Shown: positions 162 to 27,043, counted from the first letter of the stretch. The stretch: 32,000 nucleotides of DNA from Candidatus Saganbacteria bacterium (GCA_026387835.1 JAPLKZ010000010.1:30001-62000), one strand, 5' to 3'. Numbers and translations are program-made. Notes: a model not told the origin generated them from the letters alone.

Positions 162-725
162 ATGGAACTGATCGGTTTGACGGGACTTAATGCCTCCGGA
201 AAAGGCACGATCGCGGACTTTTTGAAGGAAAAGGGTTTCGTTTATTATTCACTTTCGGATATAGTGCGTGAAGAAGCTACGGCCCTCGGCATGGATCATT
301 CCAGGGAAAGTCTGATTTTTGCGGGCAATAAACTGAGAAAAGACTTCGGGCCTTCCGTACTTGCAAAAAAGATCGCGGAAAAGCTCCGGCAGGCAAATAC
401 TTCAAAGGCCGTGATCGACAGTATCAGGAACCTTGCCGAGATCGCGGAACTAAGAAAACTGCCGGGTTTTGTCCTTATCGCCGCTGACGCGCCGCCGGAA
501 GTCCGTTTTGAACGGGCAAGATCGCGAGGCCGCATTGGGTTTGAGAGGACGCTCGAGGATTTTATCGCCGTGGAACAAAAGGAAAATACATCGGATCCTG
601 ACAGGCAGCAGCTTGCGGCCTGCCTGAAAGCCGCGGATATCACTGTCAGTAATGAGGGGACCGTAGAGGAATTGAAGATTAAGTTGGGAAAATTACTAAT
701 GACTAATTATGGAATAATATTATAA
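162..725 (+). CDS. P-loop nucleotide kinase, dephospho-CoA kinase-like / UPF0200-type
   Basis: 187-aa ORF. N-terminal Walker A IGLTGLNASGKGT. Colinear by memory with small UPF0200/CoaE-like kinases (SLSDIVREEA, IDSIRNLAEIAELRK, PEVRFERARSRGR). Confidence 0.65.
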   Translation: MELIGLTGLNASGKGTIADFLKEKGFVYYSLSDIVREEATALGMDHSRESLIFAGNKLRKDFGPSVLAKKIAEKLRQANTSKAVIDSIRNLAEIAELRKLPGFVLIAADAPPEVRFERARSRGRIGFERTLEDFIAVEQKENTSDPDRQQLAACLKAADITVSNEGTVEELKIKLGKLLMTNYGIIL

Positions 726-766
726 TCCTTCCTTCATTAGACATTAGTCATTAGTAATTAGTCATT
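694..766. repeat. 14-bp perfect inverted repeat plus tandem heptamers at convergent gene ends
   Basis: TACTAATGACTAAT (694-707, inside the kinase 3' end) is the reverse complement of ATTAGTCATTAGTA (743-756). Positions 734-766 read as about 4.5 tandem copies of NCATTAG / TAATTAG. May act as a bidirectional terminator between the kinase (+) and LCP (-) genes. Confidence 0.5.
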
Positions 767-771
767 TCCCC

Positions 772-1635
772 TTATCTCCCGTAAATGACCCTTTCTATCT
801 CTTTTCTCATGCCCTCCTCGTCCGAAAGCATATAATATCCCCTTTCAAGCCTTGCATCGCCGCCCGGGATCACGCCTGTAACAACCGTCCCTGTACGGTA
901 TATCGAAGATATTTTCAGGGCGATCCTTGCAGCCTGTGATATTCCCATGTTCGTTCTCACGTTCGAGGACATCGTATATAATATGTAAGGGAACCTGATG
1001 AGGTTTGAAGGCCTCATCAGCTCTTTTGCCAAAGCCTCAAAAAACTTGTGCTGCCTGTCTATCCTTCCCCAGTCGCTTGTCCTGTCATGCCTGAACCTTA
1101 CATACCCCATCGTTTCGTAACCGGAAAGCCTTTGCCTGCCCTGCGACAGATGAATATGCAGGTCAGCCGCATAGTCGTCATAATATAAAGGTTTTTCGAC
1201 ATCAAGAGTCACACCGCCGATCCTGTCAACAAGGTCCACGAACATGGGGAAGTTCACTTCAATATAATAATATACAGGGATCTTAAGAAAATTAGAGACC
1301 GTGGCGCAAGAAAGCTCCGGGCCTCCGTAAGTGTGAGCGTGGTTTATCTTATCCTGTCCGTGGCCCGGTATATCCACCAACGTATCTCTCGGTATTGAAA
1401 GGATGCCCATCCTGCTGCGCGCGAAGTCGATGTGCACCAGGTTTATCGAGTCTGAACGCGTCTTCAATCCTTCCTTTGTGTCTATGCCCATCACCAGCAC
1501 GTTTATCTGGTCATTCTCTTTTATCAGCCCTCTTTTTATCCCGATAAAAAGACCTGTCGCGATAATAAGCGACATCAGGGATATGAGAACTATTTTTGAC
1601 GGGTTTTGAATGTTCGTCAGCCTTCGACCAGCCAC
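772..1635 (-). CDS. LytR-CpsA-Psr (LCP) family cell-envelope phosphotransferase
   Basis: 287 aa. N-terminal TM helix (IVLISLMSLIIATGLFIGI) followed by the LCP core (VLVMGIDT...RSDSINLVHID...ILSIPRDT...KINHAHTYGG...YYIEVNF..F..LVD.IGGV). Confidence 0.85.
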   Translation of the reverse strand: MAGRRLTNIQNPSKIVLISLMSLIIATGLFIGIKRGLIKENDQINVLVMGIDTKEGLKTRSDSINLVHIDFARSRMGILSIPRDTLVDIPGHGQDKINHAHTYGGPELSCATVSNFLKIPVYYYIEVNFPMFVDLVDRIGGVTLDVEKPLYYDDYAADLHIHLSQGRQRLSGYETMGYVRFRHDRTSDWGRIDRQHKFFEALAKELMRPSNLIRFPYILYTMSSNVRTNMGISQAARIALKISSIYRTGTVVTGVIPGGDARLERGYYMLSDEEGMRKEIERVIYGR

Positions 1636-2159
1636 TTTTCCTCTTTATGGAACCACTGCGCCGGATCGTTCAGATACAGATACGTATCCTGAAGGATGTC
1701 GAAATGGGAATTTTCCTCTTTTGAAAGAAAAGCAAAAAGGCTTTTCGCGGCCGGATCTTCCGTATCCTCCGCCACTTTCTTGTAAAAATCAAACCCTTTC
1801 TTTTCCAGTTCCATGGATATCTCGTAAGCGTGCAGGAGCTCATTCTCCGTCGGGGCCTTATTATCAAGAGAGGTTTTGATATCGTTCAGGATCTCCGTCT
1901 TTATCTTTTCGCTGTCTTTTGTAGTGTTTTCGTCTGCCGGGGAAATTTGAGCGCCGGTCATTTTCGCGTAAAACTCCTCGATTGCTTTTTTGTGGAGCAG
2001 TTCTTTTCCGGCTATCGCCTGCAGCGTGGCCTTGCCCAGCGGATTGCTCGATTTCTTCGCGGCTTCCACGTAGATCGCATAGCCTTCATCCTCCATGTTT
2101 ATGGCGGTCTTTGCGGCATCGGTCAGCTCTTTTGATATGAAACGGATATTTTCCGGCAA
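1617..2159 (-). CDS. ferritin-like / rubrerythrin-family protein
   Basis: 180 aa. Two helical halves with E..E/H-type motifs (INMEDEGYAIYVEAA; ISMELEKKGFDFYKKVA; LSKEENSHFDIL). AAGGAG SD upstream. Overlaps the LCP start by 19 nt. Confidence 0.6.
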   Translation of the reverse strand: MPENIRFISKELTDAAKTAINMEDEGYAIYVEAAKKSSNPLGKATLQAIAGKELLHKKAIEEFYAKMTGAQISPADENTTKDSEKIKTEILNDIKTSLDNKAPTENELLHAYEISMELEKKGFDFYKKVAEDTEDPAAKSLFAFLSKEENSHFDILQDTYLYLNDPAQWFHKEEKWLVEG

Positions 2160-2224
2160 TTTATTCTCCTTATATAAAAGGAACCCTGAGAGGACTGTCG
2201 TTTTATATTTTTTCTGCCATATTA

Positions 2225-2252
2225 ATTATACCTTTATATATTTTATATTCAA
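2225..2252 (-). promoter_or_regulatory. sigma70-type promoter candidate for the ferritin-like/LCP operon
   Basis: On the minus strand: TTGAAT (2252-2247), 16-nt spacer, TATAAT (2230-2225). Followed by an AAGGAG SD and ATG at 2159. Confidence 0.45.
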
Positions 2253-2258
2253 GTATTT

Positions 2259-3482
2259 CTATATCCCCTCTCCCACCGTCCAACCCGTTGACCACGCTGC
2301 CTGAAGGTTGAACCCGCCTGTTTTTCCAACTATATCAAGCACCTCTCCGGCAAAATACAGACCTTTTACGATCTTTGATTCTAAAGTCCTGTTGTCGATC
2401 TCCCTGAGGTCGATGCCGCCGTCGGTCACTATCGATTTGTTCACCATCACATAACTTGAGACCGTAAACTCCATTGCCGTCAGGTTTTTTACCAGGTTTT
2501 TTCTTTCTTCTTTTGATATCTCGTTTGTTTTTTTCTCCGGATCGATACCGGAGATGCCGGCCAATACCGGCGGCAGCGACTCCGGAAGTATCTCTTTTAG
2601 GGCATTGACGATGCTTTTGTTAGGATTACTTCTGAATGTGTCAAGCAACAGCGCGTCATAGCCAGCCTCGTCTTTTTCAGGGAAAAACCCGATCAGTATC
2701 TTCAGCGAACTGAGCTGACTGCTTGACACCTCAAGGCTCGCGTTTATCATCACCGGCCCGGTGAGACCAAAATTCGCGAACATAAGAGGACCTCTTTCTT
2801 TGAAGATGACACCGGAACTGTTCCTGAAGACGATCATTGCATCGGGGATGGAGAGCCCGTTAAGCCGCCTGCAGATATCCGTTTCTTTAACTTCGAAAGG
2901 ATAAAGCGCTTTTTTCGGCGGGACTATCTTATGTCCGAGTTTTTCCGCGATCTTGAAACCGTCTCCCGTAGAACCCGTTTTTTGCTTTGTCTTTCCTCCT
3001 GTCGCGATCAGGACATTCCTGCCTGAATACTCATTATTTTTTGTGATGACGGTCAGGCGCTCCCGCCGTAAGATATCTTTGACCGGTGAACCATAAATGA
3101 TCTCCGTATTATTATTTTTTAATTTTTTCAAAAGGACGTTCAGCACATCTTCGGCTTTGTTGCTTTTTGGAAAAACTCTCTGCTGCGGTTCGGCCTTAAG
3201 AGGCACGCCATTCTTTTCAAAAAATTCCATTACTTCGATATTTGACAGATTGTGAAGCATGCTCAGCATGAACATGGGGTTCTTCATGTAATTTGAAACG
3301 AACAATTGAGGATCTTTTTCCGCGTTAGTGATATTGCATCTGCGGTTCCCGCAGAGAAGTAGTTTTTTTCCCGCGCTGTCGTTTTTTTCCAGGATAACGA
3401 CAGACTTCCCGCGCTCGGATGCCCGTATCGCGGCCATCATCCCGGCAGGCCCCGCACCGATGACGATGAGATCATATATCAT
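2259..3482 (-). CDS. FAD-dependent flavoprotein, HI0933/YhiN (BaiN-like) family
   Basis: 407 aa. N-terminal dinucleotide-binding motif DLIVIGAGPAGMMAA...ILEKN...GKKLL.CGN.RCN.TN and C-terminal GLYFAGEVLDI.G.TGG.NLQ.AWSTG, typical of this family. Confidence 0.85.
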   Translation of the reverse strand: MIYDLIVIGAGPAGMMAAIRASERGKSVVILEKNDSAGKKLLLCGNRRCNITNAEKDPQLFVSNYMKNPMFMLSMLHNLSNIEVMEFFEKNGVPLKAEPQQRVFPKSNKAEDVLNVLLKKLKNNNTEIIYGSPVKDILRRERLTVITKNNEYSGRNVLIATGGKTKQKTGSTGDGFKIAEKLGHKIVPPKKALYPFEVKETDICRRLNGLSIPDAMIVFRNSSGVIFKERGPLMFANFGLTGPVMINASLEVSSSQLSSLKILIGFFPEKDEAGYDALLLDTFRSNPNKSIVNALKEILPESLPPVLAGISGIDPEKKTNEISKEERKNLVKNLTAMEFTVSSYVMVNKSIVTDGGIDLREIDNRTLESKIVKGLYFAGEVLDIVGKTGGFNLQAAWSTGWTVGEGI

Positions 3483-4096
3483 CGGAATTTTCCCAGCATT
3501 CTTTTCAGTAAATTCACCGGGAGCCCTACTACATTATAGTAATCCCCCTCGATCCATTCGACTATCGCCCCGCCTTTGCCCTGGATGCCGAACGCGCCGG
3601 CCTTATCAAGAGGTTCTTTTGTCCTGACGTAATCTTCAATTTCTCTTTTTGAAAGTTTTTTGATCTTCACTTTCGTCAGCTCAAATGTTTTTGTCATTTT
3701 ATTTGAAGGCTTCTCGATGACGGCAAGGCCTGTTATCACATCAAGGATCTTCCCGCTTATAGAACGGAGCATTTTTCTCGCGTTCTCTTTTGTATCCGGC
3801 TTGCCGAGTATTTCTCTTCCGCAGATAACGATAGTATCCGCTCCGATCACAATTCCGGTTTTTATCTTCTTTGAAGCGGAGATAGCTTTCGAGGCCGCGT
3901 GGAATAAAGCAAGTCCTTCCGGCGTCAGGCCTTTCCTGTCTTTTTCCGCGTGAACATGCCCGCAAACACTAAACCTGCTTTTTAGTGCCTTTTTTAACAG
4001 CTCTTTTCTTCTCGGAGAATCCGAAGCAAGATAATATCTTTTCATATCAATATTATGACAGATTCCCGGGGTGGGGATCTTATCAACTTCTTTCAT
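3479..4096 (-). CDS. maf: Maf-like nucleoside triphosphate pyrophosphatase (septum formation protein)
   Basis: 205 aa. LASDSPRRKELL, IGADT.V, KP....A..ML...SG and DKAGAFGIQG motifs. Strong SD (TAAGGAGACCA-ATG) supports the start at 4096. ATGA overlap with the downstream flavoprotein gene. Confidence 0.85.
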   Translation of the reverse strand: MKEVDKIPTPGICHNIDMKRYYLASDSPRRKELLKKALKSRFSVCGHVHAEKDRKGLTPEGLALFHAASKAISASKKIKTGIVIGADTIVICGREILGKPDTKENARKMLRSISGKILDVITGLAVIEKPSNKMTKTFELTKVKIKKLSKREIEDYVRTKEPLDKAGAFGIQGKGGAIVEWIEGDYYNVVGLPVNLLKRMLGKFR

Positions 4097-12670: not shown

Positions 12671-13389
12671 ACAGGTTCTTCGTCCCCAGAGACAATGTTC
12701 TCGGGGACCTCATAATCATCTCCGGCTCGGATGTGAACCATATCAAGAACGTCCTGCGCAAGGACCGCGGCCACAGGATCATCTGCTTTGACAGCAGCGG
12801 GAACGAATACCTCGCCGAGATAAAGGACATCTCAAAGGAAAAAATATCCCTCGCCGTCATATCCAAAAAAAAGAACAGCGCGGAACCGAAGACAAAGATC
12901 ACTCTCGGTCAAAGCCTGCCGAAACTTTCTAAAATGGACCTCGTGATACAAAAAGCGACGGAGCTCGGTGTCTTTGAAATCATCCCCGTAATATCAGAAA
13001 GATCAGTTCCTAAATCCGGCAAACCTGAAAGGTGGAACAAGATCGCAAAAGAATCCAGCCAGCAGTCAGGAAGGACCCATATCCCCGGGGTCATCATGCC
13101 TGTCGGGTTGCCGGATTTTTTCAAAAAGACCAAAGATGCCGGATTAAAACTTATCCCTTTCGAAGGCGAAGACTATACGACCATAAAACATGTACTGAAT
13201 AAAAATGCCGGTATATCAAATATTGCGCTTTTGATCGGACCCGAAGGCGGATTTTCTAATAGTGAGATCGAACTGGCAAAGCGCTCCGGTTTTACCAGCG
13301 TTTCACTTGGAAAAACGATATTAAGGACGGAGACCGCGGCGCTCGCTGCTATTTCCATGATACTTTACGGTCTGGAGATGGACGGATGA
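12667..13389 (+). CDS. rsmE: 16S rRNA (uracil1498-N3)-methyltransferase RsmE
   Basis: 240 aa. N-terminal RFFV, H...VLR, and C-terminal IGPEGGFS..E........LG..ILR.ETA SPOUT motif. ATGA overlap with dnaJ. Confidence 0.9.
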
Positions 13390-15005
13390 ACAGAAAAAAG
13401 CTTGATGTAACAAAACTGAGGGATGACTTTTTTAAGTTGAAACCTGACCCTGAAGATCCCGCGCAGAAAGTCTCGTTCGGGACTTCGGGCCACAGGGGAT
13501 GTCCATCACTCGGGACTTTCAATGAAATGCATATCGCCGCCATCGCACAGTCAATGGTCGATTTCAGAAAAGAGAACGGCATAAACGGCGTTCTTTTCAT
13601 CGGCATGGACACGCACGCGGCCTCGCTTCCCGCGATGCAGGTCGTTCTGGAAGTGCTTGCTGCTAATGATGCGGAAGTGAGGTTCGAAGAAAGACAGAAG
13701 TTCGACGATAAAAGCGGGTTCACCCCTACCCCGGCAGTCTCGTTCGCCATCCTCGAGGAAAATAAAAATGACCAAAAAGCTAAAGCGGACGGGATAATAA
13801 TAACGCCTTCCCATAATCCGCCGGCAGACGGCGGGATAAAATACAATCCGCCGACAGGCGGGCCCGCTGACAGCTCGATGACAAAAAAGATCGGGTCCTA
13901 TGCGAATAATTACCTTAAAGGACTAAATGCCGGAGTGAAAAGGATCCCTCTTGAAACGGCACTGAAGAAAAACAGCGTCCGAAGACATGATTTTGTCACG
14001 CCTTATGTCTCGGCCCTCAAAGATATTATCGATATGGACGCCGTCAAGAGCTCAAAAATAAAGATCGGGGCTGACCCTCTGGGCGGAGCCGCGATCGAGT
14101 ACCTTGAACCCATAAAAAAACTATACGGGATAGAACTGGAAATAATAAATGACGCGATAGACATGACCTTTGATTTCATGCCTTCGGACCATGACGGAAA
14201 AATAAGGATGGATTGCTCCTCCCCTTTTGCAATGGCAAATGTCGTCAGACAAAAAGATGATTTCGACGTCATATTCGCCAATGATACGGACTCGGACCGC
14301 CACGGCATAGTCGCCAGGTCAAAAGGTCTGTTGAACCCGAACCATTTTCTTTCGGTCGCGGTCTGGTACCTGATAAATCACAGGGCACACTGGGAAAAGG
14401 GACTTTCGGTCGGAAAAACAATAGTGACTACCCAGCTTATTGAACGGATCGTGAGTAAACTCGGAAGGATGTTTCTTGAAACGCCGGTGGGATTCAAATA
14501 TTTTGCGGACGGACTTTTTAAAAAGACCCTTTGCTTCGGCGGGGAGGAAAGCGCGGGAGCTTCATTCTTGAGGATGGACGGATCAACATGGACGACCGAT
14601 AAAGACGGGATAATAATGGGCCTTCTTGCCGCGGAAATATGCGCTGTCATGAAAAAAGACCCTGGGATAATTTATGAAGAGCTTACCAAAGAATTCGGAA
14701 TTCCTTTTTATAAAAGGATAGATACACCGGCAAGCCCGGCCTTAAAGAAAAAACTCGGAAACGCTTCCCCGGAACAAATAAAAGCAACCACACTCGCAAA
14801 AGACGCGATCATTTTGATTTCTTCAAAAGCACCGAACGGAGAACCTATTGGCGGGCTTAAGATCTCGACTCAAAACGGCTGGTCTGCGGTCAGGCCTTCG
14901 GGCACGGAAGATATCGCCAAGCTTTATGCGGAGAGCTTTGTGAGCGAAGAACATCTGGAAAATATCATCAGCGACACCCAAAACATCATCAAAAATCTTG
15001 TGTGA
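13386..15005 (+). CDS. pgm: phosphoglucomutase, alpha-D-glucose-phosphate specific
   Basis: 539 aa. All four phosphohexomutase loops are canonical: TPSHNPPADGGIKYN, NDTDSDRHGIV, GGEESAGASF and RPSGTEDIAKLYAES. Confidence 0.9.
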   Translation: MNRKKLDVTKLRDDFFKLKPDPEDPAQKVSFGTSGHRGCPSLGTFNEMHIAAIAQSMVDFRKENGINGVLFIGMDTHAASLPAMQVVLEVLAANDAEVRFEERQKFDDKSGFTPTPAVSFAILEENKNDQKAKADGIIITPSHNPPADGGIKYNPPTGGPADSSMTKKIGSYANNYLKGLNAGVKRIPLETALKKNSVRRHDFVTPYVSALKDIIDMDAVKSSKIKIGADPLGGAAIEYLEPIKKLYGIELEIINDAIDMTFDFMPSDHDGKIRMDCSSPFAMANVVRQKDDFDVIFANDTDSDRHGIVARSKGLLNPNHFLSVAVWYLINHRAHWEKGLSVGKTIVTTQLIERIVSKLGRMFLETPVGFKYFADGLFKKTLCFGGEESAGASFLRMDGSTWTTDKDGIIMGLLAAEICAVMKKDPGIIYEELTKEFGIPFYKRIDTPASPALKKKLGNASPEQIKATTLAKDAIILISSKAPNGEPIGGLKISTQNGWSAVRPSGTEDIAKLYAESFVSEEHLENIISDTQNIIKNLV

Positions 15006-15023: not shown

Positions 15024-16271
15024 TTAATAGACCTTGTCCGACTCTGCCTCGTCGAGTTTTTTCGCGGTGTTTTTTTGATCCGCGGCAGACGTCTCTGCGC
15101 CCTCTTTTTTCAGAAATTTTGACGCCTCAGACCCGGCAAGAGATACTACTTCTCCTCTTCCAGACAACAGGCCGCTTTCCGCAAGGACAAAGCCTTTGAT
15201 CAGGGACAGCTTTTGTTTTTTGTCATCGGTGGTCCAGACTGCCAGGCCGCGGCGTCCATTGCCAAGACCTGTGGGTTGTATTATTACCTGTTTACCGGCT
15301 GCTCTTCCTATGTAAAGGGTCAGTCTTTTTCCGGACAGAGTATATAAATTCAGATAACCCTTGACAAGGCCCTCGGTCGATTCAGCCGGACGGCTCTCGC
15401 CAGTTATCAGCCAGTAAACAAGATGCTTTCTTCCTATGCCTTCGGTCTTTGGCAGATCGCCCTTATACTCCTGAAGTCCTAATGGTATTTTTGTCGGACT
15501 CTCAATGAACTTATCTCCGGTAAAAAGTTTTACTGCCGATTCTGGAAACTCCCTGGTCTTTTTGTCATCGGCAAGAACCCAGAACCGCAGGCCCCTGCTT
15601 TTATCCTTGAAAATTACCGGCTCGCCTTCTATTCCGCTCTTCTTCAGGCGGTCGTCACCGCTCATGGATATCTTCACAGGCGGTAATTTTTTAGAAGCTT
15701 TTTGGAGGGCGTATAGATATACTATTCCAAATTTATCGACTTTCAGAGGTAAAGGGTCCGGCTGGCAGTTTCCCGTGCCAAGCCAGTAGATCAGCTGGCA
15801 GACATTCAGGTCATAGGCGCCAGGCAGACCGCTGCTGCGGAACTTTTCCAGGAACGGGCGAAAGCTTTGCGGAGTATCAAGCAGTTTTCCCCGGTTGTCC
15901 GAAAAAATATATCCCTGAAAAGGAAAAACCATCGCCCCCCTGTCATTGACCGACCAGAATATGGCAGCCTTGCAGTCGTCAAGCAAAACAGGATGAACAA
16001 TAACACCATTCCTGATGATCTCGGGAGCATTGAACGTATATAAGTCCATGGGACTTGTCTGTCCCACATATAATACAATTTTAAAACCCGGGTCCACTGT
16101 CAGGGGGATTTTCCCGGGTATACCGGCCTTGTCTGTAAGCCAGTTGCTCAATCTTGTCCTTTGGGCAAGGGTTGCCTGAACCGGTCTTACTGCGGGAGAT
16201 TTTCTTTGAATGGTTCTTTCTGAGGGGCTCCCTGCTCCTGGCATATTTATATTTTTTGATCTTATCTGCAT
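15024..16271 (-). CDS. hypothetical tandem-repeat protein A (3 copies of an unassigned ~120-130 aa module)
   Basis: 415-aa ORF. No signal peptide or TM helix seen. Module anchors are LSNWLTDK / LIYWLGTG / LVYWLITG, each followed by an ..LY strand and then a (D/G)xSRGLxxW-type motif (KSRGLRFW, GRRGLAVW). Colinear paralogue of 16377-18716. Confidence 0.75.
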   Translation of the reverse strand: MQIRSKNINMPGAGSPSERTIQRKSPAVRPVQATLAQRTRLSNWLTDKAGIPGKIPLTVDPGFKIVLYVGQTSPMDLYTFNAPEIIRNGVIVHPVLLDDCKAAIFWSVNDRGAMVFPFQGYIFSDNRGKLLDTPQSFRPFLEKFRSSGLPGAYDLNVCQLIYWLGTGNCQPDPLPLKVDKFGIVYLYALQKASKKLPPVKISMSGDDRLKKSGIEGEPVIFKDKSRGLRFWVLADDKKTREFPESAVKLFTGDKFIESPTKIPLGLQEYKGDLPKTEGIGRKHLVYWLITGESRPAESTEGLVKGYLNLYTLSGKRLTLYIGRAAGKQVIIQPTGLGNGRRGLAVWTTDDKKQKLSLIKGFVLAESGLLSGRGEVVSLAGSEASKFLKKEGAETSAADQKNTAKKLDEAESDKVY

Positions 16272-16376
16272 GTGATACTTATCACTCCGGTTAATCTATC
16301 GATCACAAAAATATGAGTATTTCACTATTAAGACATTCGCGTAAGGGCCCAAATCGCCCGGCAACCATCCGCCCGT

Positions 16377-18716
16377 TTATTCTTCCATTGATCCATCTGT
16401 GTATTCTCTAGCGGATACTTGATATTCATTTCCGGGCATTGACTCCTCATCTTTTCTGGGTGTTGTCTCTTCTTTCCCGGAACCTTCCTCTTCAAGTCTG
16501 ATAGCTTTTTTTGCATCGGCGGCTGCTTTCGCAGCGTTAGGATCTTTGACAATCACTAATTTTCTTTTTCGCCGTTTACAGCTACTGGCAGCAGCCACCA
16601 GTTTCAGTAATTCAATACGGTCGTTTCTTGCAAGTACGCTGCGGCCCGCTGAATCCAGGCTGACGTTGTTGATGATGTCTTTCACTGCTGCCATCTGCTG
16701 CAGTATTTTCTGCTGCGCCTCTGGTTTATTCTTCAGCTTGGCGGAATTTTTTTTCAATTCGAAATAACGCCTGTTCAGTTCTAATATCAAACTGCTTTTC
16801 TCAAGACACATGATCTCTTTGTCAGACAAGACATGGGGCATAGCCAGAAGCTCGCCACTGACCGTCATACCGGCCTGACCAGCCGGTTTTTCTGCAGTCT
16901 TAGGCGGAGCCGCCAGAATGAAACCCTTTACCGGCCTTATCTTCTTCCCGCTTTCATCGGTCTGCCAGTATAGAAAACCTCTCTGAGCTCCGCTAAATTC
17001 AAAAGGCTCCCGCCATACACTGCCTCCGATTTCAGGAGGGATGGGCAATTCCATAGCCGGCCGCACTCCCGGTAACAGGTTCAGAACATCAGAGCCGTTT
17101 GAAAGTTTAACTGTGATCCCTTCCGGCGGATTGCTGCCGGTGCAAAGCCATGCCAGCTCGTTTAGCATACCGCCTTTCAGGCGGATCACTTCTTCCCTGT
17201 CAAAGAGTCGTCCGTTGCGTGCCAGGACCAATCCCGCTAAATTCGGACCTCCGCATTTTTTTGTTTTATCGAACGCCCGGTCCACAATTCCCCTGAGACC
17301 GTCCGTAAATTGAACCGGCTGCCAGACAATCCATCTGGGCCGGCCGGGCAGCCTGCAGCTGATGGGTTTTTGCGACTTAAGTGAATAAAGATAATGCTTT
17401 CCTTCCTTGATATGGCATTTCTGCTGTCTCGGAATCGCTTGCCCGGTGATAAACCAGTAAGCCAGCTGATATAAATGCCTATCGTTCGTGAGCGGCAGCT
17501 TCCCTGAAAACCCCTCAATGCCAAACAGTATTTTTTTTGGTTTTGTAATAAAATTTCTGCCGCTAAAAAGTTTTGCGGAGGCAAAAGGAAATGGTCTTGA
17601 TCCTCCCGGCCCGACCGGCCAATAGCAGGCACCGCGGCTGCCGTCAGGAAAAACCTGCCGTGTCCTGATCAACCTCGGCCCGAATACGGAAGTGAGCATC
17701 AGAAAGATGCTTTCACTCTCGCCGGACCTTATCTTTGACTGCGGCCTTCTATAAAGGACATCGGCGCCGTCTTTTATCCTGACGGTCTGTTCCCCATCGT
17801 TTTCCCCTTCGCCGGTCGCCAGCCAGCGGATGAACGACCTGGTCTGCGCGGAATATGTTCCAGGCAGCCGGTCAGGCGCGATCTGCGCCAGGTCATCCGC
17901 GACTGGCATCAGTTCTTCCCTGCTTAAAAACCTTCCGCCCTTGAAAAGCCTATAGCTTTTAACAATATCAAGCGTGCGTTTTTCTTTGTCAAGAGGTGTC
18001 AATAAGACTCCCCGGCTCCGGTCCCGGAAAGTTTTTGGCTCTAATCTTGCCGCTCCTATCTCGGTGACCGATCCTCGGAGATTATTATTCGGATTAAGAT
18101 TGAGCGGGCAGCTGTGATTTTTGCCCGCATTAAAATTGTATAGATAGATCTTTCCCACCGAGTCCGCCTTTAATTCGAAGGTCTCCGGCCGGCAGAGACC
18201 GGTGGCAAGCCAGTATCTCAGGTGACATATCCACAGGTCATCGGAACCGGGCTGATTCTCATCCGGCAATTTTTCCAGACCGGGGATAAATCTTTGTTTG
18301 CCATAAATGACCCTGCCGTTTCCTCCGGCCAGAAGGTAACCCGCAAAAGGAAAGCCTTTCTGACCGTTATCTTCTACCGACCATAAGACCAGCCCCCTGC
18401 TAAGCCGGAAGTCCTGGAAAGTCTTTGGTTCCAGGATCACTCCGTTCCTTGATATTTTATCGTCTTGAAATGTGTTAAGCATTGTCTTTTTACGGGTTCC
18501 GGCAGGTAGATATATAACTCTCTCGCAATGATTTACCCAAATGTGAAAAGCGGCAGGTCTCGGGCCCTGATTGGCCAGCCAGGTCAATAAGCGAAACTTG
18601 TTCTTTAAAGTCGCGCCGTTCGACGATGCCCATGACGACGCACTGCTGAATACGTTCCCGACACTTGTTATGTGCTGTACGCTTGTATTTATCGCTATTG
18701 AACTATTGTAATGCAT
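16377..18716 (-). CDS. hypothetical tandem-repeat protein B (5 copies of the same module plus a helical, basic C-terminal tail)
   Basis: 779-aa ORF. Anchors are LLTWLANQ, LRYWLATG, FIRWLATG, LAYWFITG and LAWLCTG. Second anchors are LSRGLVLW, RSRGVLL, GSRGACYW, GLRGIVD and AQRGFLYW. The tail of about 150 aa is rich in K/E/A/L and carries KRRKRK. Confidence 0.8.
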   Translation of the reverse strand: MHYNSSIAINTSVQHITSVGNVFSSASSWASSNGATLKNKFRLLTWLANQGPRPAAFHIWVNHCERVIYLPAGTRKKTMLNTFQDDKISRNGVILEPKTFQDFRLSRGLVLWSVEDNGQKGFPFAGYLLAGGNGRVIYGKQRFIPGLEKLPDENQPGSDDLWICHLRYWLATGLCRPETFELKADSVGKIYLYNFNAGKNHSCPLNLNPNNNLRGSVTEIGAARLEPKTFRDRSRGVLLTPLDKEKRTLDIVKSYRLFKGGRFLSREELMPVADDLAQIAPDRLPGTYSAQTRSFIRWLATGEGENDGEQTVRIKDGADVLYRRPQSKIRSGESESIFLMLTSVFGPRLIRTRQVFPDGSRGACYWPVGPGGSRPFPFASAKLFSGRNFITKPKKILFGIEGFSGKLPLTNDRHLYQLAYWFITGQAIPRQQKCHIKEGKHYLYSLKSQKPISCRLPGRPRWIVWQPVQFTDGLRGIVDRAFDKTKKCGGPNLAGLVLARNGRLFDREEVIRLKGGMLNELAWLCTGSNPPEGITVKLSNGSDVLNLLPGVRPAMELPIPPEIGGSVWREPFEFSGAQRGFLYWQTDESGKKIRPVKGFILAAPPKTAEKPAGQAGMTVSGELLAMPHVLSDKEIMCLEKSSLILELNRRYFELKKNSAKLKNKPEAQQKILQQMAAVKDIINNVSLDSAGRSVLARNDRIELLKLVAAASSCKRRKRKLVIVKDPNAAKAAADAKKAIRLEEEGSGKEETTPRKDEESMPGNEYQVSAREYTDGSMEE

Positions 18717-18852
18717 CTATTTCTTTTTCCAATTGGCTCTTTGATTAACTTATCGTTAAATTAATAAACAAATTTCATCTTATTTTTTTCAAAATATCGA
18801 TTAACTGAAATTTCCCTTAAATTCAAACGATACATCAATTGGATATATCATC

Positions 18853-20565
18853 ATGAACAATACAAGGTTCCCTACAGCTTCGATGTATGACGCAAGACAT
18901 CTCATACAGGGAGCCACATCGGTGCGGCCCAGGCTTCCGTTAAGCGGGATCATCGAGTCTTCAACAAGGAGTTTCAGGCAGGTCGTCTTCAGACATGATA
19001 TTTTTCCGGAAAGATCCGCTGCTTTGGTCGCGGAAGTTGTCGGCAATCTTCAAAAAAATCTTCCGTTCGTCAACCTGTTGATCACACCCGGAAATACGAC
19101 CCTCGGTTTTATGGAAGCGCTTGCGGCAAAAAAGACAGTTAATTGGAACAAGGTCAGGTTCATCCACGGAGCCGAGATCCTCGGTGAAACCCCTGACAGC
19201 CCCCTCTCCCTTGCAAGTTTTGTGAACAGATATTTTATCGGCCTTATGGACCCGAAAAACAGAATAACCGAGATCATCGGGCCTGACCCGATCCATCCGA
19301 GCACTGAAGCATATGCTGCCCGGGTCAGGAAGATCGGAGGGATAGATATCGGCGTTCTCGGCTTGGCTGCTGACGGTGAGATAGTTTTTTGCCCGCAAGG
19401 AACTCTTTTCGACAACCCCGTCTCTGTCGTTAAGCTCAGCAGGGAAAAGATCATAAGCAAAGGTCTCGATGTGAAAGACCCGACGCTTGCCAACTGCTAT
19501 GCGATGTCTCTTGGGCTTGATTTTGTGTGGGCGATCAGACATCTGTTCATGCTTGCGACAACTCCCGAAAAAGCTTCAATAACAAGAACGACACTGTTCG
19601 GCCCTGTGGGTCCGGAAAATCCCGCCTCCATCTGCAGGATCCACCGCAAATGCACGTTCATCGCTGATGAACTTGCCGCCGGGGATCCGGCATCGATAAG
19701 CCATCAGGCCGAGAAATCAGCCAGAGTTATCTGCAGCTGCAAGTGGCCAAGCCTCGATATCAGGGAAAAAGACGGTGAAGAATTTATAGAAAAGATGGCC
19801 AGGTATCTTGAGACATGTGTCACACAAAAAGAAATGGAGCTGCTGCTTTTGTGTATAAAAGCACCCGTCACATCGCTGCACGAGCTTGACCGGCAGCTGC
19901 AGCCGGCGATTTTACGTTACTATATAGAATATTTTGATGAAATAAACAAGCGGGTGTCCGATAAGGGAGATCCTAAAACCCAAAGACTCCTTTTAAGGGA
20001 CCTGTTCCAAAGGGCCGTGACAGTGTATAAATTTAAAACGACCAGAGCTATGGTTTCTGAAAGAAAAGCTCTGCTTTCTTTGTTCCTGTTCATAAATCTT
20101 AGGTCGGGCCATAAATTGGGGTCGTCATTGCGAAGCGATGTATCTCTTGACCTTCTTTTTAATGAGATCATTTCCAGCTCGGATCCGACAATCTTCAAAC
20201 CAGCGCTCGAGATAGCTGTCGAATTCCTTGCGAGTGGAGAAGAAAGTCATAATACCATTTTTTTCCAATGGCTGACGGATTTTCTGGATAAATCCGAACA
20301 CCTGCCAAGGTTTTCAAGGGCTCTGATAGATCTTTTATCGCGCGCATCAGCTGGAGAAGTCGTCCTTTTTGAAATGAAGGACAAAGATGTGTTCTTTTCC
20401 ACCGCCAAGATCGTCGTGGCAAAGATCGTACACAGGTCTGCGAGACTGACCGAAGAATTTAAGCAGTATTCCGCAATGATGACCCGTTCGATGCAGGGAA
20501 CGAATATCCCGCAGATAATCAAGGAAGTGTGGGCTGAGATAGGCAGGCTGAACGGGGGGAAATGA
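18853..20565 (+). CDS. 6-phosphogluconolactonase/NagB-fold domain with non-canonical catalytic residues, fused to an unknown ~290-aa helical domain
   Basis: 570 aa. Residues ~70-277 are colinear with the 6PGL/glucosamine-6-P deaminase family: ITPGNTT matches SGGSTP, VNWNKVRFIHGAEIL matches VDW..V.FF.GDERxV, GVLGLAADGEIVFCPQG matches LGxGPDGHTASLFPG, and the end matches FIADELAAG. The C-terminal half has no motif I recognise. Confidence 0.7.
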   Translation: MNNTRFPTASMYDARHLIQGATSVRPRLPLSGIIESSTRSFRQVVFRHDIFPERSAALVAEVVGNLQKNLPFVNLLITPGNTTLGFMEALAAKKTVNWNKVRFIHGAEILGETPDSPLSLASFVNRYFIGLMDPKNRITEIIGPDPIHPSTEAYAARVRKIGGIDIGVLGLAADGEIVFCPQGTLFDNPVSVVKLSREKIISKGLDVKDPTLANCYAMSLGLDFVWAIRHLFMLATTPEKASITRTTLFGPVGPENPASICRIHRKCTFIADELAAGDPASISHQAEKSARVICSCKWPSLDIREKDGEEFIEKMARYLETCVTQKEMELLLLCIKAPVTSLHELDRQLQPAILRYYIEYFDEINKRVSDKGDPKTQRLLLRDLFQRAVTVYKFKTTRAMVSERKALLSLFLFINLRSGHKLGSSLRSDVSLDLLFNEIISSSDPTIFKPALEIAVEFLASGEESHNTIFFQWLTDFLDKSEHLPRFSRALIDLLSRASAGEVVLFEMKDKDVFFSTAKIVVAKIVHRSARLTEEFKQYSAMMTRSMQGTNIPQIIKEVWAEIGRLNGGK

Positions 20566-20616
20566 TAATTGGTATTATGATCAATTAATTATCCAATAAT
20601 TTCAAAAATGTGTGAA

Positions 20617-20628
20617 ATTTCCGGAAAT
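20617..20628. promoter_or_regulatory. 12-bp perfect palindrome upstream of the phosphohexomutase-like gene (candidate operator)
   Basis: ATTTCCGGAAAT lies 56 nt upstream of ATG 20684, in the 118-nt AT-rich spacer after the 570-aa gene. Confidence 0.3.
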
Positions 20629-20683
20629 CTTTACCGATAATTATATAGGAAGATAATTTAATCAGCAAAGGAGAAAGAGTGAA

Positions 20684-21889
20684 ATGTCTACAGCGAGATT
20701 GACCCCAGTCCAGCAGCATTTATCCGATATCATTGGAAAGACCGCAAGGAGAAGCACATCAACGATCGCGCGGGGACCTATGGAACATGATATTTTCGGA
20801 AGAAGGCTTAATTTACAAGGCCAGTTTGTTGAGACAAGCGACAGCTCAGCAAGGCTTAACACTGCAGCTTTGGATCTATCAGCTGCACTCAAATCGAACA
20901 CCGGGGGTATTGAGACTGCTCTTAAAGGTGAAGTAATGTACTATGATGTACGGTCAAAGACACTGAGACAGCAGCCTGCTCTTGCCGCGCTTATGGCATT
21001 AGCTTATGCAAAGGAACTTCAGGTCAGGAGCGGAAAGCCGGACGGGCATGTCATCAATGTCGCCGTCGATTGCTATGCGAAACATTATGACATGATGTCT
21101 GTGTTCGCAGATACGATAGCCAGGTCCGAAGCAGTTCAGAACGGCGGGGGCGTCATATTTTGGGGGGTCCAGAACGGCGGCTCTATAAGGAACGTCGCGG
21201 AATTCCAATCGGCAGCGAACTTGGCCGGAGGCAATTGGATTTACGGAACAGTTAGCCATTTGGCTAAACCCGAAATTGCCGGAACAAAGCTCGGCATGCT
21301 TGGAAAAGTATTTTGCGGTACAGATCTTATGAAAGATCTTTATGCCAGGCTGACGACAGGCGATTTTGCCGCGCTCAGAGCAGTGGAAAATGCCGCAGAT
21401 AACTTCATCACGGTCGGTGACATGACCGCCCATAATCTTGCGGTAGCCGAAGACATGATCCGCGCAAGGACAGGCGCGACTTGCCCGACAGATGAACTTT
21501 TGGCAGGGTTAAGGATCGGGACTGATATCTGCCACAGTCCTCTCGGTCTGAATTTTTATCTCATGGCAAGTCATTTTGGAGCCGATGTACGCACATTAAA
21601 TGAAAACCTTAGCCCTGATTTCAGTGTGGCTGATATTACCGATCCAAATGAACATGAAACACCTAAGATGGCCGAATTCCGGACCAGGACATATGACAGA
21701 CGCACATGGGGCATCCTTGACCCTGATGCCGACAGAGGTACTTTTATCGCTTTGAACGCGAACGGGGTACCGGTTTCTTTAACGGGAACACATCTTTTAA
21801 AGCTGACAGCATACAATTGGGCGACCCATAACCCTCAGGGCCTGGACAAAGGACCGGATTGGCGATCCAGCTGCTCGTGGAAGCATTGA
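20684..21889 (+). CDS. divergent alpha-D-phosphohexomutase-like protein, N-terminal part (domains 1-3), frame-disrupted
   Basis: AAAGGAG SD. After an ~85-aa polar extension the sequence is colinear with PMM/PGM: YYDVRS matches AYDIRG, GTVSHLAKPEIAGTKL matches TGSHNPPxYNGFK, and LDPDADRG matches FDGDGDR. The ORF ends in out-of-frame residues (DWRSSCSWKH*). Confidence 0.75.
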   Translation: MSTARLTPVQQHLSDIIGKTARRSTSTIARGPMEHDIFGRRLNLQGQFVETSDSSARLNTAALDLSAALKSNTGGIETALKGEVMYYDVRSKTLRQQPALAALMALAYAKELQVRSGKPDGHVINVAVDCYAKHYDMMSVFADTIARSEAVQNGGGVIFWGVQNGGSIRNVAEFQSAANLAGGNWIYGTVSHLAKPEIAGTKLGMLGKVFCGTDLMKDLYARLTTGDFAALRAVENAADNFITVGDMTAHNLAVAEDMIRARTGATCPTDELLAGLRIGTDICHSPLGLNFYLMASHFGADVRTLNENLSPDFSVADITDPNEHETPKMAEFRTRTYDRRTWGILDPDADRGTFIALNANGVPVSLTGTHLLKLTAYNWATHNPQGLDKGPDWRSSCSWKH

Positions 21890-22533
21890 ACGCAAAAGGT
21901 CACAAGATCGGGTTGATAGATGCTGAACCGGGATATCCGTTCTTCATGCGCGCGATGGGAGAGACCACTGCCGCGGCAGCCGTTGAAAATACTTGTCATT
22001 TTTTCTTGGCTCCTAATACAAATCCGCTGTTTGGAGCCCCGATTTCATACCCGGGTGTCCAGGGAGGAGACGATGCGGCGCTGGCGCTTATATATTTATT
22101 GGCAGCCGCTAAACATCAATGGCAGGGCAGAAACCCTGTACAGCAATTGGATTGGATGAGACAGGAATTCGGTATACCTCCTACAATAATCAGGGAATTC
22201 AAGCCGGGTCTTCCGCAGGAATACGCTTTGAAAAAATATGATGTCGCGGAAGCGATGAAGACTTATGTAAAAAAAGAACTGGAACCGACCAGAAACTATA
22301 AAGTAGATTACATGGTTAGTGGAGTCGGAGTGCAGAGCCTCAAGACAAAAGCAACGGTACTGGTCAGGTTCTCAAATACGGGCCCCACCTTTACCACATC
22401 GGGAGAAGCACTGTCCCGGGAAGATTCTGATCAGGCATTCAAACTCGGCGCATCTATTATGGAAAAAGGAGTAAAAGCAGCCGGGGTTGAAAATGTATTT
22501 CTATGGAAGGATCTGGCTCCTTTTAAGCCGTAA
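21859..22533 (+). CDS. same phosphohexomutase-like gene, C-terminal part (domains 3-4) in the -1 frame
   Basis: This frame is open from 21832. AAVENTCHFF matches GEMSGHxFF, GGDDAALALIYLL matches DDGI.AA..LLE, and RFSNTGP matches R(A/P)S(N/G)T(T/E)P. The track start is a TTG inside the overlap, so it is unlikely to be an independent gene. Confidence 0.7.
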   Translation: MAIQLLVEALNAKGHKIGLIDAEPGYPFFMRAMGETTAAAAVENTCHFFLAPNTNPLFGAPISYPGVQGGDDAALALIYLLAAAKHQWQGRNPVQQLDWMRQEFGIPPTIIREFKPGLPQEYALKKYDVAEAMKTYVKKELEPTRNYKVDYMVSGVGVQSLKTKATVLVRFSNTGPTFTTSGEALSREDSDQAFKLGASIMEKGVKAAGVENVFLWKDLAPFKP

Positions 22534-25036: not shown

Positions 25037-25545
25037 TTCATTTTCATTCTTTGTTTAAGAAGTTTGATATCTTCCATGTCTTTTTTTCTGCCTGCGATCT
25101 TTTTAAGTTCTATCAGTTCGTCGATACCTACAACAGACACATTTATTCCCCATGCCTCTATCACTATTCTTTTCTTGTATGCTTTCTTAAATGAAATATA
25201 GTTTTCTGTCATTACATCAATATTGATATACGGATTGTCTATATCAATAAATGAAAATACCAGCATCCCCTTTTCCTTCTGCCATTTTTTCACCTTATAC
25301 GGGTCAGCAAGATCTTCCGGATTAACAGGAACTTTGGGTTTTAGCTTGAGTAGCTTCATCACTGAAATGAACTTCAGCAGGTTCCCTCTGTCCATTGAGA
25401 GCATAATATCCATGTCCCCTGTAACTCGCTCAACCCCGTGAAGATTAACCGCGATCCCGCCGATAATAAGGTACTTGACTTTCTTTTTCTCTAATTCTTC
25501 AAAAATATCTTCATAGTATAATTGTCTGTTTTTAGGTTCTCTCAT
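25033..25545 (-). CDS. nucleotidyltransferase-fold protein (minimal NTase, DUF6036/AbiEii-like)
   Basis: YLIIGGIAVNLHGVERVTGDMDIML fits the GG-x-A-x(3)-HG-x(2)-R-x-T-x-D-x-D NTase pattern. ATG 25545 (ATGA overlap with the metF stop) is preferred over track start 25611, which lies inside metF. Confidence 0.6.
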   Translation of the reverse strand: MREPKNRQLYYEDIFEELEKKKVKYLIIGGIAVNLHGVERVTGDMDIMLSMDRGNLLKFISVMKLLKLKPKVPVNPEDLADPYKVKKWQKEKGMLVFSFIDIDNPYINIDVMTENYISFKKAYKKRIVIEAWGINVSVVGIDELIELKKIAGRKKDMEDIKLLKQRMKMK

Positions 25546-26405
25546 ATTTTCTCTGTTATCCGTTTGACTGTTTCCGCATCGTTCATCGTCATGAAGTGAA
25601 CGCCGTCGCATAAAGATTTAAGTTCTTTTATCGTCTCGACCGCGATATCCAGGCCTTCTTTGACCGGATCTTTAGCGGCTTTCATCCTTTTCAGGACCTT
25701 CTCCCCCACTTTCACCCCGGGAACTTTCTGGTCCATAAAGACCGCTGCCGATAAAGATTTTAAAGGGAATATGCCGAGCAGAAGTTTTGCCTTGAGACGG
25801 CCCGCCTTGTCGCGGAACTTTTTGAACAGGTCTGTGTCAAAGACCACCTGTGTCTGGATGAATTCGGCGCCCGCATCTATTTTTTTTCTCAGTTTCATTA
25901 TTTGAAGGTCCATCTGCTCGCTGTTCGGATTGACCACGCAGCCTGTGGTAAGATCGGCTTTGCCCGACAGACCGTTACCGTGAAGATCTTTCCCGCCGCT
26001 AATTTTTTTAATAAGATCTATCAACTGGACCGAATCCACTTCGAACACGGGCTTCGCGAGGACTTTCCCATCCTTGACGGGATAATCTCCGGTGATGGCC
26101 AGGATATTTTTAATGCCGAGCGCTGCCGCCGCGAGTATATCAGATGAAAGCCCCATGCTGTTGCGGTCGCGGCAGGACATCTGATATACCGCATCGACAC
26201 CTTCGCTTACAAGCTTGTGGCAGAGGACAATGGGGTTCATCCTCATCACCGCCCTCTGGTTGTCGGTCACGTTTATCGCGTGTACCGTGTCTTTAAGCTG
26301 CCTGGCTTTTTCCAGAGCGGGGATTATATCGCTTCCCCTGGGTGGGAATATCTCCGCAGTCAATATGAATTCATTGTTATCTATGGCTTTTCTTAAGGTG
26401 TTCAT
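25542..26405 (-). CDS. metF: methylenetetrahydrofolate reductase MetF
   Basis: The 288-aa version starts MNTLRKAIDNNEFILTAEIFPPRG and is colinear with MTHFR (VTDN, LAITGD, FEVDS.QL). The track ORF is over-extended into metV. ATG 26405 overlaps the metV stop (ATGA). Confidence 0.9.
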   Translation of the reverse strand: MNTLRKAIDNNEFILTAEIFPPRGSDIIPALEKARQLKDTVHAINVTDNQRAVMRMNPIVLCHKLVSEGVDAVYQMSCRDRNSMGLSSDILAAAALGIKNILAITGDYPVKDGKVLAKPVFEVDSVQLIDLIKKISGGKDLHGNGLSGKADLTTGCVVNPNSEQMDLQIMKLRKKIDAGAEFIQTQVVFDTDLFKKFRDKAGRLKAKLLLGIFPLKSLSAAVFMDQKVPGVKVGEKVLKRMKAAKDPVKEGLDIAVETIKELKSLCDGVHFMTMNDAETVKRITEKI

Positions 26406-27043
26406 TTTTCGACTTTTCTCGGCCGCAGCGCTGCGGACCAGTCTTTTACCGGCCGGAAATCCCTGATGTCCGAAACGGAATTTATCTGCTTCAGCCTCTC
26501 TTCGATGATCGCCCACGCGCAGTCGTTTTCCTTGTTGACCTCGCATTTGCCCTCTACGGAACCGCCGCACGGGCCGTTCAGGGTGTTTTTAGCGCATCGT
26601 GTTATAAGGCAGATGCCGCCCGTCTTGTCCAGCTGGCAGTCCCCGCAGGTGGTGCACATCTCGTAGAATTTTCCCGCGCGCTCCACTCTTGCCAGGAACA
26701 TGGAATTGAGAGCGGGAAAAGTTTTTTTGCCGATCAGGTCGGCTATCGTCTGGGACCCCGCCCCGCATGACATGACAAGAAAAGTGTCGGCTTCGTCCAT
26801 TTCTTTACGCAGGTCTTTGAGATCTTTTTTGCACAGCCGCTCGTCGCAGGTCGATTCTATTACTTTTGTCCCGGTAACGCGCTTTCCGGCTTTTTCAAGG
26901 GCCTTTTTCATCTCCCTGACCTGTTCTTCGCCGCCGGTATTTGTTGTCGTGGCGCACGAGCCGCAGCCCGCAATAAAAATGCTTTTGCTCTCTTTGAGCA
27001 TCCCAAGTATTTCTTCGATCTTCTTTTGTTCTGTTACGATCAT
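26402..27043 (-). CDS. metV: MTHFR C-terminal-domain protein MetV (cysteine-rich partner of MetF)
   Basis: 213 aa. Cysteine clusters GCGSC, SCGAG, CTTCGDC, C....CAK...NGPCGG and C. Sits immediately upstream of metF, as in acetogen-type metVF pairs. Confidence 0.85.
   Translation of the reverse strand: MIVTEQKKIEEILGMLKESKSIFIAGCGSCATTTNTGGEEQVREMKKALEKAGKRVTGTKVIESTCDERLCKKDLKDLRKEMDEADTFLVMSCGAGSQTIADLIGKKTFPALNSMFLARVERAGKFYEMCTTCGDCQLDKTGGICLITRCAKNTLNGPCGGSVEGKCEVNKENDCAWAIIEERLKQINSVSDIRDFRPVKDWSAALRPRKVEK

Follow-up and report, generated by a model that had tools for sequence, protein, structure and literature searches.

Tandem arrays of a rare, apparently undescribed alpha+beta domain in two paralogous proteins of Candidatus Saganbacteria

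A 32,000-nucleotide stretch of the genome of a Candidatus Saganbacteria bacterium (GCA_026387835.1, JAPLKZ010000010.1:30001-62000; this whole stretch is referred to below as the window) carries two adjacent minus-strand genes, A (15024-16271; 415 amino acids [aa]) and B (16377-18716; 779 aa), whose products contain three and five tandem copies, respectively, of one and the same module. The evidence set out below makes it very probable that this module is a real, repeated and previously undescribed domain, confidently folded and not exported. As to function, we favor an array for binding or scaffolding, possibly linked to nucleic acids or transcription, although this explanation, taken as a whole, is held tentatively and falls somewhat short of probable.

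The original prediction, made from the nucleotide sequence, had proposed two colinear paralogues of 415 and 779 aa with three and five copies of one module; both proteins are exact entries in the open reading frame (ORF) list of the window, and the peptides quoted for them are present. BLASTP of A against B gave an alignment of 359 columns at 30% identity (E = 2e-37) and three further, out-of-register alignments (E = 5e-22, 3e-16, and 1e-10) shifted by at least one repeat unit, which indicates internal repeats. The anchor motif W-[LF]-x-[TND]-[GKQ] occurs at residues 44, 163, and 287 of A and at residues 46, 169, 298, 421, and 523 of B, with spacings of 119 and 124 aa in the former and of 123, 129, 123, and 102 aa in the latter (a period of 102 to 129 aa). 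Cut at these anchors, the eight modules align in register with pairwise identities of about 19 to 36%, and the best pairs across the two proteins (A1-B1, 35%; A2-B2, 36%; A3-B4, 32%) identify A and B as colinear paralogues, B having two extra units. When each module was held out in turn, it scored 27 to 70 bits against a profile of the other seven, compared with a mean of about -2 bits and a maximum of 7.5 bits for shuffled sequences (200 shuffles per module). A six-frame scan of the window with a profile of the wider family (40 modules, described below) recovered these eight modules and no others, all of them in A and B; they covered profile positions 2 to 100 and scored 66 to 85 bits. On the minus strand of gene B these are B1 (residues 38 to 142; 18291-18605; 76 bits), B2 (residues 161 to 269; 17910-18236; 79.5 bits), B3 (residues 290 to 395; 17532-17849; 70.7 bits), B4 (residues 413 to 510; 17187-17480; 71.8 bits), and B5 (residues 517 to 612; 16881-17168; 77.7 bits); those of gene A, likewise on the minus strand, are A1 (residues 36 to 136; 15864-16166; 66 bits), A2 (residues 155 to 261; 15489-15809; 84.8 bits), and A3 (residues 279 to 375; 15147-15437; 78.8 bits). 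The most divergent copy is A1, which has Lys-Ala in place of a conserved Arg-Gly. Tandem Repeats Finder detected no DNA-level tandem repeat, so the copies are old. The repeat in A and B is thus confirmed.

Outside the modules, protein A consists of a very basic 31-aa leader (isoelectric point [pI] of 12) and a short charged tail that flank the array (residues 32 to 382). Protein B has a 33-aa leader, its array (residues 34 to 612), and a basic, helical C-terminal tail of 167 aa (residues 613 to 779; minus strand, 16377-16880 with the stop codon included; pI 9.0) without a module or a Pfam match, in which a KRRKRK patch is present and whose end is acidic. In the public record, B is hypothetical protein NTZ10_04345 on a 364-kb contig of a Candidatus Saganbacteria metagenome-assembled genome (MAG), is 701 aa long, and starts at M79; this call drops the first 78 codons (18483-18716) and splits module B1 in half. 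Since the 779-aa ORF keeps B1 complete (profile positions 2 to 99) and no alternative in-frame start lies between M1 and that module, the deposited call is probably too short and 779 aa the better one. Gene A follows B on the same strand after a spacer of 105 bp (16272-16376), which holds a GGAG 13 nucleotides upstream of the ATG of A and, when scanned, no terminator-like site on the minus strand. Because of this arrangement, B and then A probably form one co-transcribed operon.

The consensus of the 40 modules matches the motif of the original prediction. It comprises a helix (L-x-x-W-L-x-T-G-x3-P), a strand ending in LY, a variable insert, and a second half that reads E/P-x-x-F-x-D-G-x-R-G-x-x-Y-W and then F-P-x-x-x-Y-x-L-x-x-x-G-x-F; members of the family are recognized by a full-length match to the 40-module profile, by the helix L-x-x-[WFY]-L-x-T-G-x3-P at the anchor, and by the strand R-G-x-x-[YF]-W. 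Conserved columns are those of a hydrophobic core, Gly and Pro turns, and aromatics. Among charged residues, just two are well conserved, an Arg (35 of 39 modules; in the R-G-x-x-Y-W strand) and a Glu (28 of 40); four of the eight window copies have Gln, His, or Thr instead of the latter. No catalytic-type constellation of His, Cys, Ser, or Asp stands among the conserved columns of the 40 modules, in line with the absence of a catalytic motif noted at the outset. Because conservation falls on core, turns, and aromatics and the lone Glu is replaced in half of the window copies, the module is most likely a structural or binding domain and not an enzyme. The conserved Arg and Glu/Asp could be taken as a sign of an enzyme with an unrecognized active site, but multicopy arrays of enzyme domains are rare, and we regard this explanation, jointly with the one in which the ORFs of A and B lack a function or are spurious (weighed below), as very unlikely. 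Neither protein has a transmembrane-like window, and neither N terminus has a signal peptide or lipobox, which bears out the earlier expectation that signal peptides and transmembrane helices are lacking.

No described family accounts for the module. A and B gave nothing in Pfam at E ≤ 1 (hmmscan), and scanned against NCBIfam they gave only TIGR02059 on the leader of B (E = 0.17; 12 bits against a 40-bit cut-off). Scanned one by one, the 40 modules yielded no recurring family in Pfam (E ≤ 1) or PHROGs; Phage_gp53 and Rv3651-like_N each matched one or two modules only and were taken as chance. PADLOC returned nothing for A, B, or five relatives, and 177,635 PDB sequences contained nothing credible for 8- or 40-module profiles, an antibody Fab and SoxS (E ≥ 0.33) being taken as chance. 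DUF7229 (PF23875) matched one distant carrier, P0003, at the level of the whole protein (E = 3.7e-4; 21 bits), on the C-terminal half of a module; it was set aside, as the score is under the 27-bit gathering score, no single stretch is significant, and the family is absent from the 40-module scan at E ≤ 1. No literature on DUF7229 was found. The module has no profile match to TPR, Kelch, FG-GAP, LRR, WD/WG beta-propeller, or WGR families; these classical repeats have units of 20 to 60 aa, whereas the module is predicted to be an autonomous domain of ~110 to 125 aa. The original prediction had placed the module in no known repeat family, and this holds across Pfam, NCBIfam, PHROGs, PADLOC, and PDB sequences, with no high-probability match to a described repeat domain.

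AlphaFold2 prediction of A3 (residues 273 to 382 of A) with the 40-module alignment gave a mean predicted local distance difference test score (pLDDT) of 90.9 and a predicted template modeling score of 0.83, and all five models had a pLDDT of 87.5 to 90.9. The predicted fold, which rests on this one module, is compact, neither disordered nor of low confidence. Its helix (model residues 7 to 18) is the W-L-x-T-G anchor, after which seven consecutive strands (26-29, 34-40, 43-48, 56-65, 68-76, 82-93, and 96-104) form an antiparallel meander. In this meander lie the signatures LY, E-x-x-x-F, R-G-x-x-Y-W, F-P-x-x-x-Y-x-L, and G-x-F. From these models, we are confident in a predicted autonomous alpha+beta domain of ~110 residues with one helix and a seven-stranded meander. 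Foldseek with the module model returned nothing significant (best E = 0.6 in PDB and 0.4 in BFVD; template modeling [TM] scores of ≤0.38). The top entries were folds in which a sheet wraps a helix (hotdog thioesterases, START/AHSA1-like 3uid, SnoaL/NTF2-like proteins, and gC1qR/p32), which share one helix and a long antiparallel sheet with the module, yet at E ≥ 0.6, a probability of ≤0.14, TM scores of ≤0.28, and a root mean square deviation (rmsd) mostly above 10 Å, and with neither sequence similarity nor common catalytic residues. A hotdog-fold thioesterase or dehydratase was rejected (E = 0.6 to 3; TM score of 0.16 to 0.24; rmsd of 10 to 13 Å): the helix of the module conserves only L, W/F/Y, L, T, and G, without a catalytic acid or nucleophile at its N terminus. 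Nor did we adopt a circularly permuted PH-like fold, no PH structure being among the Foldseek matches listed, or a Xis/AlpA-type winged helix-turn-helix for the anchor helix, where a single helix precedes the sheet and no winged helix-turn-helix is among the matches listed.

Relatives of the module are few and far between. Among 5.8 billion proteins, a word-indexed search with B as the query recovered nothing but B itself, and the same search with a concatenation of 18 diverse modules found only P0003 and P0004; with the eight-module alignment it missed even B, which scores 562 bits in HMMER with that alignment, so negatives from its alignment mode are unreliable. An exhaustive HMMER search of 1.84 billion representatives at 50% identity (E ≤ 1e-3) with a profile of the eight modules, as proposed with the original prediction and now run, returned 15 proteins, namely A, B, 12 true carriers, and P0013, a low-complexity false positive that was lost on profile iteration; the module therefore extends beyond this genome. 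After iteration, the profile covered 14 proteins with 40 modules in all; each array has between one and six copies, and the period is shared, at about 100 to 130 aa in nearly all carriers (similar in P0003 to P0009 and P0015 to P0017); the larger cluster members P0016 and P0017 have three modules each. The carriers, mostly giant multidomain proteins, come from MAGs of Omnitrophota (P0004, P0008/P0016, P0010, and P0012/P0017), Nitrospirota (P0007), and Gemmatimonadales (P0006), from an unclassified bacterium (P0003), and otherwise from unbinned metagenome contigs. Window modules are 26 to 35% identical to modules from other phyla, about as much as they are to each other (24 to 32%). There was no match to B in GTDB species genomes, no match to A in JGI metagenomes, and no relative in 50,697 phage records, 72,556 plasmid records, or IMG/VR. 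A scan with a tighter alignment (A5) found only two known Omnitrophota contigs and a spurious locus (L011), a 38-residue match without ORFs and without a profile match. Judged by sequence comparison, the module family is real, extremely rare, and phylogenetically scattered. Weak codon bias in A and B could be read as a sign of non-functional or spurious ORFs, but the two frames are long and open, the eight copies are under purifying selection for one fold, homologues occur in other phyla, and the model reaches a pLDDT of 90.9; together with the leave-one-out scores, these points uphold the earlier view of A and B as real, selected proteins.

In the carriers, the modules stand beside a variety of domains. 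P0008/P0016 have three MarR-type winged helices (HTH_24, 70.9 bits) N-terminal of three modules and, after these, a region annotated by NCBI as a class I S-adenosylmethionine (SAM)-dependent methyltransferase. P0010 has TPRs and sigma-70 before its modules (Sigma70_r4 at 31.6 bits, above the cut-off; r2 weaker); in P0007, two module pairs alternate with helix-turn-helix (HTH) segments (HTH_23, 28.1 bits, above the cut-off), followed by TPRs. In P0003 (residues 965 to 1130) and P0015 (residues 468 to 640), proteins of 1800 to 2450 aa at loci L001 and L003, the segment right after the array weakly resembles sigma-70 regions 3 and 4 (RpoS, E = 0.0024; hhalign to the sigma region of P0010, E = 0.0095; Sigma70_r3, E = 0.07) and stays below the thresholds of Pfam; a cryptic sigma-like domain may be present there. 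P0012/P0017 combine HATPase_c, UPF0489, TPRs, and three modules in one protein. DNA-binding domains thus lie beside modules in three to four architectures, all of them of cytoplasmic domain types. P0004 (residues ~1000 to 1200) and P0010 (residues 1 to 190) also carry a second unannotated, beta-rich repeat (...DKDGKPILDKEGKPL.V..E..I..Q...), which differs from the present module and matches nothing in Pfam.

The Omnitrophota carriers belong among the giant proteins of that phylum (West-Roberts et al. 2023, 10.1101/2023.11.21.568195; 10.64898/2026.06.07.730766), in whose unannotated regions the same module occurs in one to six tandem copies. They are 760 to 5023 aa long, with TPR, HATPase_c, radical-SAM-type, methyltransferase, and HTH/sigma domains, whereas A and B are small, consist of the array only, belong to the phylum Saganbacteria, and share nothing with them but the module. 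Neither sigma/HTH domains nor this module are mentioned in the two giant-protein papers (10.1101/2023.11.21.568195; 10.64898/2026.06.07.730766). A and B likewise differ from the Archaeovorin- and dockerin-type giant proteins of Omnitrophota, which are very long and membrane anchored with HEAT or dockerin/TSP3 repeats: at 415 and 779 aa, they have no transmembrane segment, HEAT, or dockerin, and P0012/P0017 are the only distant relative with an Archaeovorin-like domain set. Tandem beta-rich repeats in giant Omnitrophota proteins are often predicted to be extracellular (10.1101/2023.11.21.568195), which would make the module an extracytoplasmic adhesin or surface repeat comparable to their Ig-like, dockerin/TSP3, or CBM-like repeats. 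P0015 begins with a hydrophobic segment, like a signal or an anchor, immediately ahead of its modules, and P0012/P0017 have transmembrane segments, both of which would fit; yet P0003, a full-length homologue of P0015, lacks an N-terminal hydrophobic segment, the arrays are fused to cytoplasmic types (sigma-70, MarR winged helices, and SAM methyltransferase), and in P0006 a single transmembrane segment is followed by an Arg-rich stretch that places the modules inside by the positive-inside rule. With A and B themselves devoid of export signals, a surface role is very improbable.

Charge and spacing of the modules inform the proposed role. A and B have pI values of 9.62 and 9.72, all eight window modules are basic (pI 8.1 to 10.3), and 29 of the 40 family modules have a pI above 8. 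The linkers between modules are near constant in length, and in A, B, and distant relatives they repeat the pattern [IF]-P-x-x-[LI]...[LI]-P, which suggests that the arrays may be ordered and not beads on a string. We propose that A and B would be soluble proteins of the cytoplasm, built almost wholly from the undescribed alpha+beta domain in tandem copies, that the module would most likely be a non-enzymatic binding or scaffolding unit, and that the array, given its near-constant linkers with a conserved hydrophobic/proline pattern, would probably be a fairly rigid multivalent platform. Because the eight window copies are basic and arrays stand beside HTH and sigma-70 domains in unrelated relatives, the partner bound by the platform could be a polyanion or a protein, within assemblies associated with transcription or nucleic acids; basic charge and repeated HTH/sigma fusion point weakly to nucleic-acid or transcription-machinery partners. 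In Saganbacteria, the array would have been released as two stand-alone paralogues, B and then A. The more specific version, a new fold in multivalent arrays that dock on sigma factors, RNA polymerase, or nucleic acid, is distinctly unlikely on present evidence.

Several observations weigh against the proposed role. There is no HTH or sigma domain within A or B themselves; several of the HTH/sigma associations are sub-threshold, and the fusions were seen in a small number of fragments, some of them overlapping, from Omnitrophota proteins that resemble one another, and amount to ~3 to 4 independent architectures. Giant Omnitrophota proteins combine many unrelated domains, which makes co-occurrence weak evidence (10.64898/2026.06.07.730766). 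Of the 40 family modules, 11 are not basic but acidic or neutral. For full-length A, AlphaFold2 run on the single sequence reached a pLDDT of 32 and was unusable. Finally, no neighboring gene is conserved, the genes of the window giving nothing against the loci of relatives at a BLASTP threshold of 1e-4.

The same domain partners could instead mark the module as a small-molecule sensor in a PAS/GAF/WYL-type role, which would control the adjacent HTH, sigma, kinase-ATPase, or methyltransferase domain, with A and B acting in trans. HTH, sigma-70, HATPase_c, SAM methyltransferase, and TPR are the usual partners of sensor domains; a length of ~110 aa, an alpha+beta composition, and tandem use are typical of sensors; and the top, non-significant Foldseek entries are ligand-binding folds in which a sheet wraps a helix (hotdog, START-like 3uid, and SnoaL). 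The context of the arrays in cytoplasmic carriers is indeed like that of tandem accessory domains (WYL/Sm-like, PAS, and GAF) fused to HTH or sigma domains. However, none of the 40 modules has a profile match to these at E ≤ 1, there is no Foldseek match to them, the Sm-like barrel of a helix and five strands included, and neither sequence nor fold matches any other sensor family. Apart from the one Arg and one Glu, no polar residues that could line a pocket are conserved. WYL, PAS, and GAF domains do not typically form arrays of as many as six copies or proteins that consist of the array only; proteins that lack an output domain would be unusual for sensors, and up to six copies of nearly identical length with conserved linkers are more scaffold-like. 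We therefore consider a sensor role rather unlikely and keep the binding or scaffolding array as the preferred explanation.

The window is otherwise an ordinary stretch of chromosome. A plus-strand series of hrcA, grpE, dnaK, dnaJ, rsmE, and pgm extends to 15005, with A and B convergent to pgm; past B lie a divergent NagB-like gene and two orphan-like ORFs, then panE, pmbA, MTHFR, lysS, coaX, and others. The NagB-like gene (18853-20565, plus strand) encodes 570 aa with a diverged glucosamine-6-phosphate deaminase-like domain at residues 55 to 280 (PDB 2bkv, E = 3e-10), far under NCBIfam cut-offs, and a C-terminal extension of ~290 aa without any match. The two orphan-like ORFs (20684-22533, plus strand) overlap, one of 401 aa with a weak PGM_PMM_II match (E = 4e-4) and one of 224 aa with none, and could together represent a single mutase-like gene, either frameshifted or highly divergent. 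At 25542-27043 on the minus strand, the ORFs for MTHFR (25542-26570) and for its DUF5981 C-terminal domain (26402-27043) overlap by ~170 nucleotides, probably a start-codon artifact of the mechanical ORF list. The 32-kb window contains no tRNA or mobile-element gene and no toxin, nuclease, or integrase. Codon bias is weak in A, B, and the next three genes (15024-22533) compared with housekeeping genes, a pattern that would fit either low expression or a horizontal acquisition long ago.

At the loci of relatives, other giant genes adjoin and occasionally insertion sequence (IS) elements, a phospholipase D (PLD) nuclease, or a DNA methylase. The gene for P0003 (2451 aa; contig JAHJDO010000055.1) is flanked at 575-3648 and 12891-13736 by genes for an IS200-type Y1 transposase, a PLDc_2 protein, and an N6/N4 DNA methyltransferase, which looks like a mobile or defense-island setting, unlike the surroundings of A and B. 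Another explanation starts from such settings, with the fused modules as fast-diverging, horizontally spread, non-catalytic alpha+beta units of an immunity-type or conflict system that neutralize toxins or defend against phages and mobile elements. Patchy spread over four phyla would fit, as would the transposase, PLD-family nuclease, and N6/N4 methylase beside P0003, an rve integrase beside P0017, HicAB on the contig of P0015, and the weak codon bias of A and B relative to their housekeeping neighbors. PADLOC, however, found nothing in A, B, or the five relatives, the phage, plasmid, and IMG/VR collections hold no relative, and the neighborhood in the window is all housekeeping with no conserved partner gene, which makes a conflict-system origin quite improbable.

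For the organism and the family, the findings have several consequences. The public gene call is corrected, B being 779 aa and not 701, and A and B, as small, soluble, array-only proteins, are the most tractable members for expression, structure, and binding work. If the fold is truly new, the module stands as a candidate for a new domain family, for which a confident model is available, and would annotate part of the giant Omnitrophota proteins left unexplained in two recent preprints. Its repeated fusion to sigma-70 and HTH domains offers a testable lead to an accessory transcription module in lineages without cultured representatives. Were docking on the transcription machinery or nucleic acid to prove true, the arrays would represent an unrecognized class of transcription-associated repeat proteins in Saganbacteria, Omnitrophota, Nitrospirota, and Gemmatimonadota, some of them free-standing, like A and B, and others integral arms of giant polypeptides with sigma or HTH domains.

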